Source of the DNA: an uncultured Candidatus Saccharibacteria bacterium
GTDB lineage: Bacteria > Patescibacteriota > Minisyncoccia > Phycocordibacterales > PALSA-1337
Direction: 5' to 3'
DNA length: 64,000 nt
Assembly: GCA_964357605.1 (NCBI GenBank)
Contig: CAYHLX010000004.1
Coordinates: forward strand, 1,081 to 65,080
In this document: piece by piece, positions 1 to 7,635 of the stretch
Layout of the letters: every line of letters begins with the position of its first letter
Position numbering within the stretch: position 1 is the stretch's first letter
Notes under the pieces: generated by a model
Seen by the model: only the letters and a program-made list of their open reading frames with translations
Database searches by the model: none
What the model was told of the DNA's origin: nothing
Position numbers and translations under genes: made by a program

Positions 1-1
1 C

Positions 2-187
2 ATTTCAGCCGAGTTGAAAGTTACCGAAGCCCCTCCTAACGTTAAAGGTGATAGTGCCACCAGTGGAGGTAAGGTGATTACTTTAGAGACTGGTGCTACC
101 ATCACTGCTCCCCTATTCGTAAACGTTGGAGACATAATCAGGATCAATACCGAGACTGGAGAGTATCGAGAAAGAGTTGGAAAGTAA
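2..187 (+). CDS. efp: Elongation factor P, C-terminal fragment (5' end lies outside the window)
   Basis: Frame-2 translation ...[22 protein letters not shown] matches the EF-P C-terminus. Stop TAA at 185-187. Confidence 0.75.
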
Positions 188-191
188 TAAC

Positions 192-222
192 AAAAAAAGC
201 CACCCTCGGGTGGCTTTTTTTG
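192..222. terminator. Rho-independent terminator, probably bidirectional between efp (+) and rpsR (-)
   Basis: GCCACCC-tcg-GGGTGGC hairpin flanked by an A-run upstream and a T7 run downstream. Confidence 0.6.
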
Positions 223-223
223 T

Positions 224-427
224 TTATCTGGCTACATATGGAAGTAATCCCATAAATCTAGCTCTTTTGACAGCTACTGCCAACTGTCTTTGGCTTTTAG
301 CACAGACACCAGTCTTCTTGCGACTGATCATACGACCATGAGGATTGAGAAACTTTTTCAAGATTTCGGTGTCCTTATAGTCTATCTGCTTAATATTGTT
401 TTGTGAAAAATAACACTGTTTGATCAT
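224..427 (-). CDS. rpsR: 30S ribosomal protein S18
   Basis: 67 aa with TGVCAKSQRQLAVAVKRARFMGLLPY, the S18 signature. Last gene of the rpsF-ssb-rpsR operon. Confidence 0.9.
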   Translation of the reverse strand: MIKQCYFSQNNIKQIDYKDTEILKKFLNPHGRMISRKKTGVCAKSQRQLAVAVKRARFMGLLPYVAR

Positions 428-444
428 AATAATTTTTAATTAAT

Positions 445-894
445 TTAGAATGGTATATCGTCTGGATTAATTTCCTCTTCTGGATACTCTATAGTATCAG
501 CTGGGACATCTTTACTATCATCTGCTGGGATTTCTCCCTTTGGAGCAGATGAGCCTCCGCTCGCTCCGGATCGAGGACCAAACTGGACTCTATCGGCGAC
601 GATTTCAGTTCTGTATTTTTTCTGTCCGTCCTTAGCATCCCAAGATCTAGTCTGCATTCTACCTTCTACTAACACGCTGGCTCCCTTTTTTAGATATTGA
701 GCTGCGGTCTCTGCCTGACGACCAAAAACAACTATATTGTGATAATCAGCTGCCTCCTGTTTGGCCCCGCTCTTATCTTTCCAAACACGATTGGTGGCTA
801 CCGCCATACTACAAACCTTGATTCCAGAAGGAAGAGCTTTGATCTCTGGATCTCTAGTAAGATTTCCTATAATGATTGCTTTGTTTAAATACAT
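445..894 (-). CDS. ssb: Single-stranded DNA-binding protein
   Basis: OB-fold N-terminus and an acidic C-terminal tail ending DDIPF. Confidence 0.9.
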   Translation of the reverse strand: MYLNKAIIIGNLTRDPEIKALPSGIKVCSMAVATNRVWKDKSGAKQEAADYHNIVVFGRQAETAAQYLKKGASVLVEGRMQTRSWDAKDGQKKYRTEIVADRVQFGPRSGASGGSSAPKGEIPADDSKDVPADTIEYPEEEINPDDIPF

Positions 895-923
895 AGTGAT
901 ATAAGGTTATGGATAATATAATA

Positions 924-1418
924 TTACGCCCCTTTCACCATGTCGTCTATGCTCTTGTCCATTTCTTCAATAGTCGCAGGAGTTGCAACCACTGCATCCA
1001 CAACTGGTACTCCTTCTGCAACAGCTTCTTCTCCTTTTACTAGAACTGCTGGGGCTTTCTTTCCGAGGTAAGTATTTTCCTTAACGGTATTGATGAGAAG
1101 CATTCGGAGCATGTCTTTGTTGAGTTCAAAAGACTTCTTTATTGCCTCTATATCACCTGATGGTAACTCAAACTTAAACCAACCAAAATACGCCTGATCA
1201 AATCGATGATTCTGTGAACCGATCTTTTTAACCATTGTGTAGGCCAGCGGTCTAAGCTCAGGTGCTTCTTCAGCAATAAAACTGGCTCCCTTCTTAGAAA
1301 GAACATCCTTAAGTAGAGTAACTGTTTCCGTTACTTTATCTAAAGGTATTGAAGATACTAGCAGATACCCTATTTCATATATCTTAAGGTCTGCCTCTCT
1401 TGATATGGTCTCTGTCAT
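924..1418 (-). CDS. rpsF: 30S ribosomal protein S6 with an extended C-terminus
   Basis: Position upstream of ssb-rpsR fits the canonical operon. The N-terminal ~100 aa are S6-like. Confidence 0.75.
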   Translation of the reverse strand: MTETISREADLKIYEIGYLLVSSIPLDKVTETVTLLKDVLSKKGASFIAEEAPELRPLAYTMVKKIGSQNHRFDQAYFGWFKFELPSGDIEAIKKSFELNKDMLRMLLINTVKENTYLGKKAPAVLVKGEEAVAEGVPVVDAVVATPATIEEMDKSIDDMVKGA

Positions 1419-1602
1419 TGTTATTTGATGAGCAGTAATCCGTTATGATCCTCTAGAAGGGACGAACGGAGCATGGCCGTGCAAGCCAGGACTACTCATT
1501 TATTAATTTGGTAAAATGCACGTGCACGTACATTATCACAATGACAGAAAAATACAAGTTGACGCCATGGTAAGTGGCATAGAAAACTGTAGCAGATCGG
1601 TG

Positions 1603-1644
1603 ATGAAGAAATACCTAAGAAATAATAAAATTTTGATAAAATTT
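1603..1644. repeat. Left arm of a perfect 42-bp inverted repeat bracketing tatD
   Basis: atgaagaaatacctaagaaataataaaattttgataaaattt is the exact reverse complement of 2482..2523. Confidence 0.9.
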
Positions 1645-1707
1645 GTAGTTGCACAACATAAATAGATACCGCGTCAATACCACTTTGGATGTGATATTAT
1701 GTTGTTT

Positions 1708-2481
1708 ATGAAATACATAGATATTCACTGCCACCTAAACTTTGAGGCTTTTGATATAGACCGAACTGAAGTTATTGCTCGCGCTCAGGAAAAAGAAGTG
1801 GGGATGATTGTGGTTGGTACAAACCTGGCCACCTCAGAAAAGGCTATGAAAATTGCAGAAGAAAATGAAAACGTCTGGGCGATTGTAGGATTACACCCCG
1901 TAGAAGTTCCTTGTGAAGTTTTTGATATTGAAAATTATAGAAAATTAACCAAAAGTAAAAAAGTTGTGGGTATCGGAGAATGTGGTTTTGACTATTTTAG
2001 ACAAGGGTATGAGTTGAGGGATAAACAAAGAGAAATATTTGAAGCTCATATCGCTCTAGCCAATGAAATTAGAAAACCTCTCATGCTTCATCTACGTAAT
2101 GGTCTTAACCCAGGAGAAAATGCTTACAAGGATGCTCTGGAAGTTTTGAAGCAACATGCTAAGGTGCCTGGCGACGCCCACTTCTTTGCGGGAAATTGGG
2201 AGGAAGGAAAACAATTTTTAGATCTCGGCTTCAGACTGTCTTTTACCGGAGTCATTACTTTTGCCAGAGATTATGATGAAGTAATCAGAAATACTCCTTT
2301 AAACATGATTATATCTGAGACTGATGCCCCTTACGTAACTCCAGCACCTCATCGTGGAGAAAGAAATGAACCGTCCTTTGTTATGGAAGTCGCCCACACA
2401 ATTTCTGCCATAAGGGGTGAATCTCAAGAAAAAATACTCCCTCATCTTATTGACAACGCCAAGAAACTATTTTCCATATAG
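1708..2481 (+). CDS. TatD-family metal-dependent DNase/hydrolase
   Basis: MKYIDIHCHLNF..., GECGFDY, and ETDAPY motifs. I chose the internal Met (MKYID) as the start. Confidence 0.85.
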   Translation: MKYIDIHCHLNFEAFDIDRTEVIARAQEKEVGMIVVGTNLATSEKAMKIAEENENVWAIVGLHPVEVPCEVFDIENYRKLTKSKKVVGIGECGFDYFRQGYELRDKQREIFEAHIALANEIRKPLMLHLRNGLNPGENAYKDALEVLKQHAKVPGDAHFFAGNWEEGKQFLDLGFRLSFTGVITFARDYDEVIRNTPLNMIISETDAPYVTPAPHRGERNEPSFVMEVAHTISAIRGESQEKILPHLIDNAKKLFSI

Positions 2482-2523
2482 AAATTTTATCAAAATTTTA
2501 TTATTTCTTAGGTATTTCTTCAT
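2482..2523. repeat. Right arm of the perfect 42-bp inverted repeat bracketing tatD
   Basis: Reverse complement of 1603..1644. Begins 1 nt after the tatD stop codon. Confidence 0.9.
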
Positions 2524-2548
2524 AACCACTATGCTATCTTCATTTATA

Positions 2549-2617
2549 GCCACCGATTCGGCATGTGACTGGACTTGTTATTCCAACTTCACGAGGGTTC
2601 GATTCCCTCCGGTGGCT
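2549..2617 (+). ncRNA. tRNA-like element (acceptor stem plus a canonical T-arm) with no recognisable D or anticodon arm
   Basis: GCCACCG (2549-2555) pairs with CGGTGGC (2610-2616). T-arm is GAGGG-TTCGATT-CCCTC, discriminator U. The central 37 nt form a GTGA/TCAC + TGGA/TCCA hairpin rather than a cloverleaf. Confidence 0.35.
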
Positions 2618-2712
2618 TATTTGACCAATATTTAAATTTTGTTATACTGACCGAGATGTAGGAATCTGCATCTGGAGCCCGCGGAAGTGATTAAACACTC
2701 CTCGGTGGCAAC

Positions 2713-2745
2713 AAAACACCGCTTCATGCGGTGTTTTGTTTTACT
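2713..2745. terminator. Rho-independent terminator (bidirectional)
   Basis: AAAACACCGC-ttcat-GCGGTGTTTT followed by a T-rich tail. Abuts the stop of the minus-strand methyltransferase. Confidence 0.6.
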
Positions 2746-3556
2746 TTTCCAAAATATAAAAGAAATATTTCCACTCTCTATTTTTAAAGGAATTATATAG
2801 GTCAGAACCCTTAATTCCTGAAAAATCTACGGAGACTTTCTGAAATATTTTTGGTACTAGTTTTTTAATTGTATTCATCCTACGTTCACTATCTTTATCA
2901 AGAGCACTTACAACATTCATCGTTATGTCCTCATCTTTCACAATCCTCATGCCAGAATTAAGCAAATCTGATTTAAGTTGCTCCATTTTTTCTACCACAC
3001 GATAATCTGTAATAAGTAAACATCCTTTAGGGCGAAGGACTCTTCTAACCTCCTTAAGAAATTGAGGAAAATCCTCATAATGATGGGAAGTTTCAACATT
3101 TATTACAACATCAAATGAATTATCTAGGAAAGGAAGATTATGTGCATCAGCAACAATGAAAGATAGATTTTGAATTGATTTATATTTATCCTTGTTAAAA
3201 GTAATGGATCTTTTTGTAATATCACTTCCAACAACTTTTTTAGGTGACAAATATCTAGCAATGTAAGAAGCCCCCCCACCGCGACCACACCCAATCTCAA
3301 GTATATCCTTACCATACACATCAATACTTGAGGCAATGTGATTATATAACTGTAACGAATACCTATCATTTTCATCTATAGTTTCTAGTGGTAAATTACT
3401 ACCATCGTCATAACCATAATTCATAGTCATGATTTCATTATTTTTATCAAGAACACCTACTATTGAATACCAGCTATTTGATAAAAGTTTATTTAGTGGT
3501 TTGTATTCATAAATACTCATGAATAAACTATCCAAAAAAGAAGTGATTATTTTCAT
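2741..3556 (-). CDS. Class I SAM-dependent methyltransferase
   Basis: Motif I LEIGCGRGGGASY, acidic DI post-motif, DVVINVETSHH. AT-rich relative to its neighbours. Confidence 0.7.
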   Translation of the reverse strand: MKIITSFLDSLFMSIYEYKPLNKLLSNSWYSIVGVLDKNNEIMTMNYGYDDGSNLPLETIDENDRYSLQLYNHIASSIDVYGKDILEIGCGRGGGASYIARYLSPKKVVGSDITKRSITFNKDKYKSIQNLSFIVADAHNLPFLDNSFDVVINVETSHHYEDFPQFLKEVRRVLRPKGCLLITDYRVVEKMEQLKSDLLNSGMRIVKDEDITMNVVSALDKDSERRMNTIKKLVPKIFQKVSVDFSGIKGSDLYNSFKNREWKYFFYILEK

Positions 3557-3570
3557 ATAATTATTATAAC

Positions 3571-5013
3571 TTACTTCCTCATAAACAAAGCCTCGGCAAT
3601 CTTGTTATCCTTCAAAGCCTGCGCTATTTTTTCTGAGGTTTGTGGCAAAATTGGTCTCAAGAGAAACTCTATTTCTGCAATCTGTGTTAGTAAATATGAG
3701 ATCTGCTCTTTCCCCTTCTGTTCATCTGTTTTAATAACTTTGAATGGTTGGTTATCCTGGATAAATTTATCCGCATGTTGAATACGCAACCAGATATCAT
3801 CACAAACTCTATTGATCTCAAATGAGGCATAAAACTCTTCATGGCGGGGATCTTTTTGTGGCACAAAGTTGTGATCAAGCCTGATCTCATTCGTCTCAGC
3901 CATTTTCATCACCCGACTCACGAGATTTCCAAGACCATTCGCGAGGTGCGCATTGTAGGATTCCTTAAACTTCTCCATCGTAAAGGGACTATCTTCGAAG
4001 GGGTGAACTTCTCGGAGAACAAAGTAGCGTAAGGCATCCGTACCGTATTCTTTGATGATCTCTAGGGGGTCCACGGTGTTCCCTATTGATTTGCTCATCT
4101 TGATACCACCTTCACCAGTCACAAAGCCATTAATTACTATTTGCCTTGAATTAGGTAGTCCAACAGACATAAGCATCGCTTGCCACATGGCTGACTGCTG
4201 TCTAAGATTGTCTTTACCGCAGTACTGAATCACTCCTCCAGTCTTTATCCACCATTTTTCAAATGATTTTTCATCCTTGGGCCAACCAATGTTAGAGATG
4301 TAGCTCACCAAAGCATCGAACCAAACATACATCACATGATTTGAGTCATCTGGAACTTCCACACCCCAAGACATTTTACTTTTCAAACGAGAGATACTAA
4401 AGTCGTTAAGCCCACCCTTTACAAAGGATTTTATTTCATTAAATCTAAAAGAAGGTACAACAAAATCAGGATTCTTTTCATAAAAATCTAGGAGAGGTTT
4501 TTGAAATTCACTAAATTTAAAAAAGTAATTTTCCTCCTCAATTTCCTCAATTACCAAGGATGGATGGATCGGACACTTTCCATCCACCAGTTCCGAATCA
4601 GTTTTTTCTAGCTCACACCCCACACAGTATTTGATTTTGTAATTTTTCTTGTAGATATAGCCGTTTTTCTTGCAGATCTTCCAAAACCCTTGAGCTGATT
4701 CTATATGTTTGGGGTCTGTAGTACGATGGAAGTGTACGTCAGAAGAAATACCGAGTAGATTCATCAAATTTTTAAATGTCAAAGAAACTTTATCTACAAA
4801 CTCTTGGGGTGGCAGACTGAGAGCTTTAGCATTTCTTTCAATCTTTGCCCCATGTTCGTCAGTGCCCATACCCAAAAACACTTCGTAACCATCTATTTTC
4901 TTTACTCGCGCGATCACGTCTGCTCTGATAAATTCCAAAGCATGGCCAATATGAGCCTCTGCATTCACATAAGGTAAAGTCGTGGTGATGTAAAAACTCT
5001 TATTTTCTGTCAT
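3571..5013 (-). CDS. metG: Methionyl-tRNA synthetase, minimal form without a C-terminal tRNA-binding domain
   Basis: HIGH motif (AHIGHALE), KMSKS, and Zn-knuckle cysteines CVGC...C. Confidence 0.9.
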   Translation of the reverse strand: MTENKSFYITTTLPYVNAEAHIGHALEFIRADVIARVKKIDGYEVFLGMGTDEHGAKIERNAKALSLPPQEFVDKVSLTFKNLMNLLGISSDVHFHRTTDPKHIESAQGFWKICKKNGYIYKKNYKIKYCVGCELEKTDSELVDGKCPIHPSLVIEEIEEENYFFKFSEFQKPLLDFYEKNPDFVVPSFRFNEIKSFVKGGLNDFSISRLKSKMSWGVEVPDDSNHVMYVWFDALVSYISNIGWPKDEKSFEKWWIKTGGVIQYCGKDNLRQQSAMWQAMLMSVGLPNSRQIVINGFVTGEGGIKMSKSIGNTVDPLEIIKEYGTDALRYFVLREVHPFEDSPFTMEKFKESYNAHLANGLGNLVSRVMKMAETNEIRLDHNFVPQKDPRHEEFYASFEINRVCDDIWLRIQHADKFIQDNQPFKVIKTDEQKGKEQISYLLTQIAEIEFLLRPILPQTSEKIAQALKDNKIAEALFMRK

Positions 5014-5034
5014 GGACTAAGTATATCATCAGGC

Positions 5035-6309
5035 CTATTTTTTAAAAGTTAAAAGAGATTTCAACTTTTTTTCATCTTTATTGGGACCAATCACCGCCAA
5101 ATTTAGATTTTTATCAACAAATATTTCCTGAGCTAATTTTTGTATTTCGCGAGCGGTCACCTTCTCTGTTTCGGTGATCACCTCTTCGGGCAACCTAATC
5201 TTTCCCTTGAGAATCTCTTGGAATCCGGCAAATTCGGCCTGAGCATCAGAGGTTTCCAGATCCAACATTGTCGTACCAGCCAGATAATCTTTGGCTTTTC
5301 TCAACTCTTTTTCAGAAATTATTTCTTCTTTAAGTCTATTCAACTCTGACAGAATCGTAGAGATTGCGATTTCCAATCTCTTGTTATCAACTCCCGCAGA
5401 AATAGTTAGATCACCATGATCGGTATTAGGATTATGCGAAGCTCTGATGTAATAGCAGATTCCTAGCTCATCTCTCATTTTTGAGAAAAGACGTGAGCTC
5501 ATCCCCTTTCCCAAGATCGTCGTCAACATCCTCATGGTCGGAATTCTCGGATCGAGAATGGGAAAAGTTCGGAGGCCAATCACCAAATGGCTTTGATCGG
5601 TCTCTTTATAAACCACCTTTAGTTCTGGTTTCGTTTGAGATTCTTGAACGGCGACTTTTTTAGCTTTTGGCTGACGAGGAATATCCTTGAAAATTTGTTC
5701 TACCTTCTTTGTGACTTCTTTTTCGTCAATAGAACCAGAGACAATGACCGTCGTAGCTTCGGCCACATAATGTTGGTCTTTATAAGCTACAAAATGCTCT
5801 CGACCAAATTTCCTAATATTTTCTTCTGGACCAGTCACACTCCAACCGGCTGGTTGGTCTGGGAACATAAGTTCACCTAGCACATCCTGAACATGTTGCT
5901 GAGGTAGATCATTGTACATTTTTATTTCTTCAATAATCACTCCCTTTTCTTTATTTATTTCTGCTTCATCAAAAAGAGGGTTCTGATACATGTCAGAAAC
6001 AATATCCAAAGCTGTATCTAAATGCTTAGGATCCACTTTAGCATAATAGCCAGTATATTCCTGTGAGGTGAAAGCATTGTATTGGGCCCCGAGACTATCC
6101 AATTCTCTGGAAAGATCACTCGCTTTTGGTCTTCTGGGAGTGCCTTTAAATATGACGTGCTCTAGAAAATGCGACAGGCCATTGATCTCTTTCGTCTCGT
6201 ACTTTGAGCCCGCTTCAACCATGACCAAAACGGTCACGGCGGGATTATCCTGCATGGGTACGGTAATAACTCTTAGGCCATTTTTTAGAACGGTTTTGGT
6301 AAATTTCAT
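5035..6309 (-). CDS. M16-family zinc peptidase (insulinase-like)
   Basis: Inverted zinc motif HFLEH...E. Confidence 0.8.
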   Translation of the reverse strand: MKFTKTVLKNGLRVITVPMQDNPAVTVLVMVEAGSKYETKEINGLSHFLEHVIFKGTPRRPKASDLSRELDSLGAQYNAFTSQEYTGYYAKVDPKHLDTALDIVSDMYQNPLFDEAEINKEKGVIIEEIKMYNDLPQQHVQDVLGELMFPDQPAGWSVTGPEENIRKFGREHFVAYKDQHYVAEATTVIVSGSIDEKEVTKKVEQIFKDIPRQPKAKKVAVQESQTKPELKVVYKETDQSHLVIGLRTFPILDPRIPTMRMLTTILGKGMSSRLFSKMRDELGICYYIRASHNPNTDHGDLTISAGVDNKRLEIAISTILSELNRLKEEIISEKELRKAKDYLAGTTMLDLETSDAQAEFAGFQEILKGKIRLPEEVITETEKVTAREIQKLAQEIFVDKNLNLAVIGPNKDEKKLKSLLTFKK

Positions 6310-7635
6310 TTAGTTTATTTTTGCTTTCAAAAATTGAACTAGATTATCTAGAGAGATTCTTTCCTGTTTTCCTGTATCTCGATCACGGACAGTCACGCCC
6401 TCACCTTTTTCTACGGTCTCAAAATCAATAGTCACACAGAATGGTGTACCAATCTCGTCCTGTCGGCGATAGCGCTTGCCAATGTTACCGTTGTCGTCGA
6501 AAGTTACGGCACCAAATTCTTTCTTTAGTAGTAGATAAATCTCTTTAGCTTTTTCTACAAGTTGAGGTTTATTTTTAAGCAGAGGAAATACAGAGATCTT
6601 TGTCGGAGCTACTTTTGGTGAAAGTTTAAGATAAACTCTCTTTTCTCCATCTACCTCATCTTCGGTGTAGGCATCGGAAAGTACAGCCAGGATAGTACGA
6701 TCAAGACCGAAAGACGGCTCTATACAGTGAGGAATGAATCTTTCTTTGGTTTCTTCATCATAATATGAAAGGTCTACTTTGCTAAATTCAGAATGCTGTT
6801 TTAGATCAAAGTCTGTTCTGTAGGCTAGGCCGTAGAGCTCTTTTCTGCCAAATGGGAAATCAAATTCAAAATCAATCGTCCTTTTTGAGTAGTGAGCCAA
6901 TGAATCAGCCTCAATTTCTAATTCATGAACGTGTTTTTTATTTAACCCAATGTCTGCTGTATAGTTGTGCACTTCTTTTACAAAATGCTCAAATGTTTCC
7001 TTCCAATCTTTTGGATTTACAAAATATTCAATTTCCATTTGCTCAAACTCTCTCGCACGAAATAGAAAATCTCGTGGAGCAATCTCGTTCCTAAAAGCCT
7101 TCCCTATTTGGGCCATGCCAAACGGAAGTTTAGGATGAAATGTATCTAGAATGTTTTTAAAATTTACAAACATGCCCTGGGCCGTTTCCGGTCGAAGATA
7201 TGATACGGATGCAGAGTCAGTACTTGCTCCCACATGAGTTTTGAACATCATGTTGAATTGCTGTGCTTCACCAAGTTGTCCTCCACAATCTAGACATTTT
7301 TTTGTATCAACGAGTTGATCTGCACGAAAACGATGTTTACACTTTTTGCATTCAATCATCGGGTCAGCAAATCCGCCTACATGTCCACTTGCCTCCCATG
7401 TTTTTTGATTCATGAGTATGGCCGCATCAACGGCATACATATCGTCGCGATCATCTACAAAACGCTTCCACCACAATTTCCTGACATTATTTTTTAGCGC
7501 AACACCTAGAGGACCGTAGTCCCAAGTCCCAGCTAATCCGCCGTAAATCTCCGAACCCTGGAAAATAAAGCCGCGACGCTTGCATAGAGTTATGATGTTT
7601 TCCATCACCTTTGAGTTTTCCTCACTTTTTGACAT
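6310..7635 (-). CDS. glyQS: Glycyl-tRNA synthetase (class II, alpha2 type)
   Basis: 441 aa. N-terminus ...CKRRGFIFQGSEIYGG... and class II motifs. Confidence 0.9.
   Translation of the reverse strand: MSKSEENSKVMENIITLCKRRGFIFQGSEIYGGLAGTWDYGPLGVALKNNVRKLWWKRFVDDRDDMYAVDAAILMNQKTWEASGHVGGFADPMIECKKCKHRFRADQLVDTKKCLDCGGQLGEAQQFNMMFKTHVGASTDSASVSYLRPETAQGMFVNFKNILDTFHPKLPFGMAQIGKAFRNEIAPRDFLFRAREFEQMEIEYFVNPKDWKETFEHFVKEVHNYTADIGLNKKHVHELEIEADSLAHYSKRTIDFEFDFPFGRKELYGLAYRTDFDLKQHSEFSKVDLSYYDEETKERFIPHCIEPSFGLDRTILAVLSDAYTEDEVDGEKRVYLKLSPKVAPTKISVFPLLKNKPQLVEKAKEIYLLLKKEFGAVTFDDNGNIGKRYRRQDEIGTPFCVTIDFETVEKGEGVTVRDRDTGKQERISLDNLVQFLKAKIN

Follow-up and report, generated by a model that had tools for sequence, protein, structure and literature searches.

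In a population of groundwater bacteria the tatD gene has been inverted on its own within an otherwise collinear gene cluster, and a pair of inverted repeats sits exactly at the two breakpoints. The explanation which we favour, with a probability of roughly 55%, is a fixed inversion by recombination between two duplicated, outward-facing copies of one promoter. Positions refer to the window, i.e. the whole stretch of 64 kb of DNA that was analysed; its lineage is called the window lineage, and L-numbers denote the lineages or loci compared with it.

Results

A perfect inverted repeat encloses tatD

The tatD gene (1708..2481, plus strand) codes for a TatD-family hydrolase of 257 amino acids (match to Pfam PF01026, E = 5.5e-69). 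The left arm of the repeat at 1603..1644 (ATGAAGAAATACCTAAGAAATAATAAAATTTTGATAAAATTT) is the exact reverse complement of the right arm at 2482..2523 (42 of 42 positions; the arms as such have no strand). This agrees with the first-pass annotation, which had reported a perfect 42-bp repeat with tatD as the only gene inside; no other gene was found between the arms. It had also placed 1 nt between the tatD stop codon and the right arm. This has to be corrected because the TAG (2479-2481) abuts the arm with 0 nt between. Outward, the repeat extends imperfectly to 1590-1644 and 2482-2536 (51 of 55 positions), and identity drops abruptly at the outer edge from 42/42 to 9/13, i.e. four mismatches in 13. 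Allowing up to three mismatches, the 42-mer occurs only twice in the 64-kb window, and it was not recovered in 100 shuffles. Apart from tRNA paralogs, the window has no inverted repeat of at least 24 nt other than the pair flanking tatD. The arms and their flanks did not match any RNA family in Rfam.

An assembly artefact was ruled out. The same structure in the same orientation was present in three further assemblies from the Hainich groundwater well H41 (L001, L002 and L090), and the L090 copy differs by 6 SNPs in 1468 nt. Because the structure is shared by four assemblies, one of them with SNPs, the repeat is not a one-off product of assembly. Two other candidates were discarded. TTCTT-N6-TTCTT had 7 matches against 0.8 expected and was considered as a window-wide regulatory motif, yet the other five sites are intragenic, in coding sequence, and are not arrays. 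An inverted homology beyond the arms, with the 5' half of the neighbouring tRNA-like gene derived from the hairpin upstream of rpsF, was dropped because the outer flanks aligned no better than shuffled sequence (z < 1 in each of the five carriers).

The segment between the arms is inverted

TatD-encoding loci were gathered from public genomes and metagenomes; the hosts are Patescibacteria (Paceibacteria / Parcubacteria group; CPR). In 159 of 161 informative lineages or loci tatD is co-directional with metG (methionyl-tRNA synthetase) upstream and/or with rpsF-ssb-rpsR downstream. The exceptions in this count are the window's population and L172; L180/L181, fetched later, constitute a third flipped lineage. 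In the window rpsR, ssb, rpsF (ribosomal protein S6; 924..1418), a methyltransferase, metG (3571..5013) and an M16 peptidase are all encoded on the minus strand, and tatD alone on the plus strand. Because tatD alone is reversed amid collinear flanks, which rpsF and metG anchor on either side, the segment between the arms is inverted with respect to a deeply conserved gene order. The arms are located precisely at the breakpoints, i.e. inverted repeats bound, at both ends, a segment that is oriented otherwise than in relatives. The inner junctions, with the stop codon beside one arm and the promoter region beside the other, are the same as in the unflipped L003. Whether relatives have tatD at this site without the repeats, a check proposed in the first-pass annotation, could be answered affirmatively: tatD occupies the same slot across relatives, most of which carry one copy of the array described below. 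Thus, tatD is inverted in this lineage relative to its relatives.

Other rearrangements were seen in the gathered loci. In L178/L179 (1-3000) the place of metG upstream of tatD is taken by opposite-strand genes (phospholipase D-like, infC, rpmI and rplT) and by an ORF of 41 aa; here, too, a rearrangement had its breakpoint at the metG-tatD junction. In the more distant L026, L066 and L163, ssb is on the strand opposite to rpsF and rpsR, and single-gene flips may have happened elsewhere in the cluster.

tatD has a predicted promoter of its own

In most relatives metG abuts tatD on the same strand with 1-15 nt between the metG stop and the tatD ATG, i.e. the two form an operon. In the window they are uncoupled, and a region of 63 nt inside the flipped segment (1645..1707, plus strand) is a predicted tatD promoter. 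Its extended -10 element, TGATATTAT at 1692-1700, ends 7 nt upstream of the ATG. The start codon is probably the ATG at 1708, since the relatives' proteins have 257 amino acids and an ATG at 1699 falls inside the predicted -10. An extended -10 ending 6-7 nt before the tatD ATG is present in all seven lineages in which tatD is uncoupled from metG (the window lineage, L003, L011, L013, L017, L172 and L180), and in none of ten with a tight metG-tatD junction. Because of this short distance a leaderless tatD mRNA which starts downstream of the left arm is predicted. The flipped unit (1645-2481) would therefore consist of promoter plus gene. Similarity of the tatD promoter regions was significant for some pairs only (window lineage and L003, z = 3.6; L003 and L172, z = 3.0); L003 and L180 have 17 of 19 nt in common just upstream of the tatD ATG.

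The left arm belongs to a predicted distal rpsF promoter

The arm sequence is native DNA which is single copy in relatives. All close relatives, also those without a second copy, share homologous sequence in the 40-60 nt downstream of the tatD stop. These nucleotides form an A/T-rich array of about four 11-nt units, in L006 for example AATCTTTATCA TTTCTTAAGAA CTTCTTTATAA CTTCTTAATAA. The periodicity is well above chance, with a pooled self-match at lag 11 of 0.578 versus 0.355 ± 0.020 in shuffles. Directly after the array, 41-65 nt from the tatD stop, the motif TGnTAnnnT was found in 14 of 18 close lineages at a background of 0.0015 per nt. The window's instance is TGCTACAGT at 1586..1594 (minus strand), offset by 51 from the inner end of the arm. 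We read array and first -10 together as P1, a distal promoter of the rpsF-ssb-rpsR operon in which the array is the UP/-35 region. The left arm, on the minus strand, would then represent the A/T-rich, 11-nt-periodic UP/-35 region of the predicted P1. A conserved hairpin (GCCACTTACCATGGC, 1562..1580, minus strand) follows about 7 nt past the P1 -10, where the P1 transcript is predicted to start; relatives have a hairpin in the equivalent spot, again about 7 nt beyond the first -10 (GCCAYTTCACCATGGC). Nearer to rpsF, a second extended -10 (TGATAATGT, 1530..1538, minus strand; TGATAATCT in relatives) marks a predicted proximal promoter, P2.

The predicted promoters are motif-based and lack clear -35 boxes, and a generic promoter scan made no call at them. 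An extended -10 of the sigma-70 type (TGn plus hexamer) at a conserved position was found for P1 in 14 of 18 lineages, at the same offset in the second copy, and for tatD in seven of seven. From these motifs we infer promoter activity of the arms and of the tatD region.

The region upstream of rpsF (window 1419-1600, minus strand) and the tatD-rpsF spacers of relatives are highly structured and conserved throughout. They comprise the two tandem predicted extended -10 promoters, the hairpin, a conserved ACGTGCA palindrome immediately past the second promoter (window about 1508-1541) and an rpsF leader of roughly 100 nt (...GTCCTGGCTYGCACGG...). Possibly this is an S6/S18 autoregulatory leader; a comparison of the region with Rfam gave no match.

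The right arm faces a tRNA-like gene

On the plus strand the right arm appears to be the upstream region of a predicted promoter that faces a tRNA-like RNA gene. The extended -10 of this second copy (TGCTATCTT, 2532..2540, plus strand) is likewise offset by 51 from the inner end of its arm and ends 8 nt before the 5' end of the tRNA-like gene. The offsets are equal in both copies not only in the window lineage (51/51) but also in L011 (42/42) and L013 (49/49). The gap between -10 and tRNA-like 5' end is 8 nt in the window lineage and L011, and 9 nt in L013; in L003 there is a leader of 29 nt. The tRNA-like gene itself (2549..2617, plus strand) is D-arm-less; it folds into an acceptor stem of 7 bp, a T-arm and a central hairpin whose loop has 8 nt. 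A D-arm and a 7-nt anticodon loop, as in a tRNA, are absent from 2549-2617, ARAGORN made no tRNA call on the element, and the tRNA model RF00005 had no match in the window at E ≤ 10. The L011 homolog alone passes RF00005, and only just (30.6 bits versus a gathering score of 29); the homologs matched no other Rfam family.

The gene is kept beside the second arm in L003, L011, L013 and L017, upstream of tatD and on the strand opposite to metG. Compensatory changes were present at 12 of 19 predicted pairs of the fold (five homologs). The closest likeness to the copy in the window is that of L013, from the same well. The suspicion in the first-pass annotation that a tRNA-like element lies just outside the repeat was thus justified as far as the element is concerned, which is real and conserved; its suggested role at the end of a mobile element was not, as it is a neighbour gene with the right arm as its predicted promoter. 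Among the homologs, the loop in L011 reads CUCAUCA (CAU), L003 and L017 possess a G3:U70 pair, and the 8-nt loop of the central hairpin is common to the window lineage and L013.

Next to the tRNA-like gene lies a putative small-RNA unit (2621..2740, plus strand). It has a promoter-like site, TTGACC-16-TATACT (2621-2648) with an upstream TG, and a strong bidirectional terminator at 2710-2740; the roughly 60 nt in between suggest a small RNA gene. Units of analogous build (promoter, sRNA, terminator) adjoin the tRNA-like gene of L003, L011 and L013; their sequences are not evidently conserved and gave no Rfam match. The unit is part of the insert that parts metG from tatD; the insert consists of the tRNA-like gene, the small-RNA unit, the second arm and the tatD promoter. 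In L180, where a gene for a PemK toxin is inserted, a further copy of the array lies ahead of this gene in direct orientation, and the extended -10 behind the copy ends 6 nt short of the PemK ATG. As the second copy and the copy at PemK repeat the same arrangement, array plus -10 would serve here as a portable promoter.

A class I SAM-dependent methyltransferase (window 2741-3556, minus strand) sits between metG and tatD. Because homologs at the same position were limited to weak matches in L014 and L083, it looks like a lineage-specific insertion at the metG-tatD junction.

Arm pairs and flips in relatives

Inverted pairs around an unflipped tatD were found in L003, L011, L013 and L017, so that the repeats would pre-date the inversion, though none of these four is among the closest relatives of the window lineage. 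L003/L004/L005 have a perfect 42-bp pair (42/42) of different sequence at the same relative positions. The L011 pair has 22 perfect nt within about 31/33. The pairs of L013 and L017 are decayed, about 70% identical with indels. In three lineages the best match of the left arm is its own right arm (window lineage 93% over 55 nt, L003 90% over 52 nt, L011 93% over 44 nt), and between genomes the arms diverge; beyond the A/T-rich periodic units there is no sequence conservation between lineages. As the arms are near-identical within a genome, unlike between genomes, the arm pairs evolve in concert. Furthermore, the -10 offset is identical in both copies yet the outer part has diverged, so the duplication should be older than the perfect core. 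The likely course of events is an early duplication, the core of which was homogenised recently.

The same 0.8-kb gene was flipped independently three times among about 27 close lineages. The window lineage is sister to the unflipped L012 (191-200 of 200 bootstraps), and L172 is sister to the unflipped L174 (196-198 of 200). The flips in L172 and L180 are independent of that in the window lineage. Neither now has an inverted pair. In L172 the array is single, and no more than 14 nt separate the convergent stop codons of tatD and metG (L172 2705-3790); in L180/L181 the PemK gene is inserted and the array repeat is direct (L180 2705-4380). These two cases may mean that a flip does not need the repeat, or that the arms were lost later.

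In L012 and L170, the nearest relatives of the window lineage, the second copy is absent, metG and tatD are tightly joined, and the array is single. The lineages with the insert are dispersed over the flank-gene tree, and the sister lineages of each have 1-15 nt between metG and tatD. To account for this scatter among tight-junction sisters, several events of gain, loss or transfer of the insert have to be assumed. It may have been gained once and lost many times, gained several times, or passed between populations that occur together.

A horizontal replacement of tatD in the window lineage was considered and rejected. The discordance in identity, 68% versus 77%, was traced to a divergent TatD of L012, and the TatD of the window lineage groups with L170 of its own clade (174 of 200 bootstraps). 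The L012 protein (L012 3501-4274) is unusually divergent, with 68% identity to that of the window lineage versus 82-85% for the flank genes, so tatD of L012 may have evolved faster or have been replaced.

Discussion

According to the favoured explanation the arms would be twin copies of one promoter, both pointing away from tatD. The native copy would be the distal promoter P1 of the rpsF-ssb-rpsR operon directly past the tatD stop, and the second, inverted copy would drive the tRNA-like RNA gene. An insert carrying this gene would have uncoupled tatD from metG and provided tatD with a promoter of its own and a leaderless mRNA. An inverted repeat of 55-70 nt, the inner 42 bp of which would be kept identical by gene conversion from time to time, would thus enclose a self-contained tatD unit. 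Recombination between the copies, most likely of the RecA-type homologous kind, would then have flipped the tatD unit in this lineage, and the inversion would have become fixed. Because both promoter copies face outward and tatD has its own promoter, all three transcription units would survive the flip.

Could the inversion itself have made the repeat? Without any prior pair, the array could have been copied in inverted form to both breakpoints if the tatD/rpsF junction underwent staggered breakage or template switching. The tight junction and single array in the sister lineages L012 and L170 would fit, as would the type of array, since the arms have the lineage's own AAATTTTAYC start that is common to L012 and L170. 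A perfect 42/42 match is what a recent duplication would give, and L172 was flipped and has no inverted pair now. We nevertheless consider this origin unlikely. Unflipped L003, L011, L013 and L017 carry the second copy in the same place together with a homologous tRNA-like gene, and the tatD promoter region of L003 is significantly similar to that of the window lineage. An identical -10 offset next to a diverged outer part (4/13 mismatches) puts the duplication before the perfect core, and an ancestor with a tight junction would not supply a promoter region of 63 nt.

Staggered-break inversions are known from Drosophila, where inverted duplications of breakpoint sequence flank the inversion. 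As there, an ancestrally single-copy sequence is found here in inverted copies at both ends. The difference is that in our case unflipped relatives are already duplicated and the outer duplication is older than the perfect core.

Rather improbable, in our estimate, is a reversible whole-gene flip-flop of the tatD unit kept in this CPR clade, in which the twin promoter copies double as recombination sites and are held identical by repeated recombination. If true, the three flips, and the arms homogenised in three lineages, would bear witness to switching that still goes on and not to rare accidents. Each flip would send tatD read-through to the other side, to the rpsF ribosomal-protein operon or to the tRNA-like/small-RNA unit, and would change the strand which receives antisense transcription from metG.

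We give little credence to a programmed inverton, i.e. a site-specific recombinase encoded elsewhere that reversibly flips the tatD unit between two transcriptional contexts. The anatomy is suggestive, with inverted repeats that exactly bound a segment seen in both orientations across lineages, three independent flips among about 27 close lineages and arms kept identical in three of them. Yet a single orientation was found in four assemblies of the window's population and in three of the L003 population, although assemblies show the majority state only. No invertase or recombinase was called among the genes in the roughly 7.4 kb covered by L001 (window 1-7322, i.e. about 1.6 kb to the left and 4.8 kb to the right of the repeat), which contain efp, rpsR, ssb, rpsF, tatD, the methyltransferase, metG, the M16 peptidase and proS. 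The arms share no more than A/T-rich periodic units between lineages, and they have decayed in L013 and L017. Finally, the flip does not part tatD from its predicted promoter. Because the flipped unit carries its own promoter the link between gene and promoter stays intact, and, judged by the predicted promoter motifs, the flip neither links nor unlinks promoter and gene, nor does it recode. The proposal of an invertible segment in the first-pass annotation is therefore borne out in one respect, the inversion of the inter-arm segment versus 159 relatives with the arms at the breakpoints, and not in the other, as there is no sign of a recombinase-driven switch: one orientation in four assemblies, no recombinase nearby and a promoter that flips with its gene.

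Published invertons are recombinase-driven and switch within populations. The tatD locus resembles fimS, hin, the invertible promoters of Bacteroides and the invertons of the PhaseFinder and PhaVa surveys in that inverted repeats flank a segment with two orientations. It differs from them in the absence of an adjacent invertase, in having one orientation per population in the assemblies, which reflect the majority state, and in its long arms that are not conserved in sequence across lineages. Moreover, a whole gene flips together with its predicted promoter, without obvious on/off logic.

Very improbable is a role of the arms in RNA, where both would pair as a 42-bp duplex within one tatD-spanning transcript and provide an RNase III substrate for regulation or excision of the tatD mRNA. 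The duplex would be very stable (-50.9 kcal/mol), and read-through on the antisense strand from metG and the methyltransferase could hold both arms. However, as the predicted promoter lies between the left arm and the ATG, the left arm would be outside of the tatD mRNA. In addition, the differences between the arms in L013 and L017 are transversions and indels, neither compensatory nor wobble, and would break the pairing; most relatives have one copy only, and no Rfam family matched. The duplex of 5' and 3' UTRs considered in the first-pass annotation fails on the position of the predicted promoter and on these arm differences.

Least credible is the reading, also from that annotation, of the arms as terminal inverted repeats of a non-autonomous mobile cassette with tatD as cargo: one gene between inverted repeats with an adjoining tRNA-like element superficially has this anatomy, but tatD is in its ancestral syntenic slot in 159 relatives and its product groups with L170 of its own clade (see above), the arms are native, single-copy sequence in relatives, direct reading of the sequence on either side of the repeat, at its 42-bp as at its 55-bp limits, shows no direct repeat that could be a target-site duplication, the 64-kb window has no further arm copy, no transposase is nearby, and viral contigs and plasmids gave no match.

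This leads back to recombination between duplicated promoter copies, for which a related event has been described in Wolbachia: in ISWpi1, recombination between 23-bp terminal inverted repeats inverts the element and makes the arms symmetric (PMC3004938). In both cases short repeats of some tens of bp are located at the exact boundaries, an internal gene flips with its own -10 while the flanks remain collinear, the arms become or stay symmetric, and the event is seen by comparison of related genomes. The tatD arms are not transposon ends, though, but a duplicated native promoter, as predicted, of a ribosomal-protein operon, and what flipped is a housekeeping gene that has kept its ancestral place. 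The tatD event thus is of a known kind, an inversion between short inverted repeats, in this instance of predicted promoter DNA that was duplicated.

The proposed promoters have familiar features. An extended -10 (TGn) preceded by A/T-rich, UP-like sequence is typical of the promoters of stable-RNA and ribosomal-protein genes. Similarly, TGnTAnnnT follows phased A/T tracts here, upstream of a ribosomal-protein operon and of a tRNA-like gene. What sets them apart is the unusually regular array of 4 x 11 nt in the upstream region, and a spacing that implies starts without a leader, for mRNA or for the RNA gene, as predicted from the motifs.

Most likely the tatD flip is an instructive but fairly ordinary genome rearrangement, and it reveals no new molecular mechanism. 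It exemplifies how duplication of a native promoter gives a substrate on which a single housekeeping gene can flip without harm to the neighbouring transcription units, here in the very small genomes of uncultivated Patescibacteria, with a groundwater bacterium as the host. Because the same 0.8-kb gene was flipped at least three times independently in one clade, the metG-tatD-rpsF junction is a hot spot of rearrangement. The comparison provides testable predictions on promoter architecture, i.e. extended -10 elements, a periodic A/T-rich upstream array and leaderless mRNAs, and it adds a tRNA-like small RNA that was previously undescribed. The finding is of moderate interest, chiefly for genome evolution and promoter architecture in CPR bacteria.
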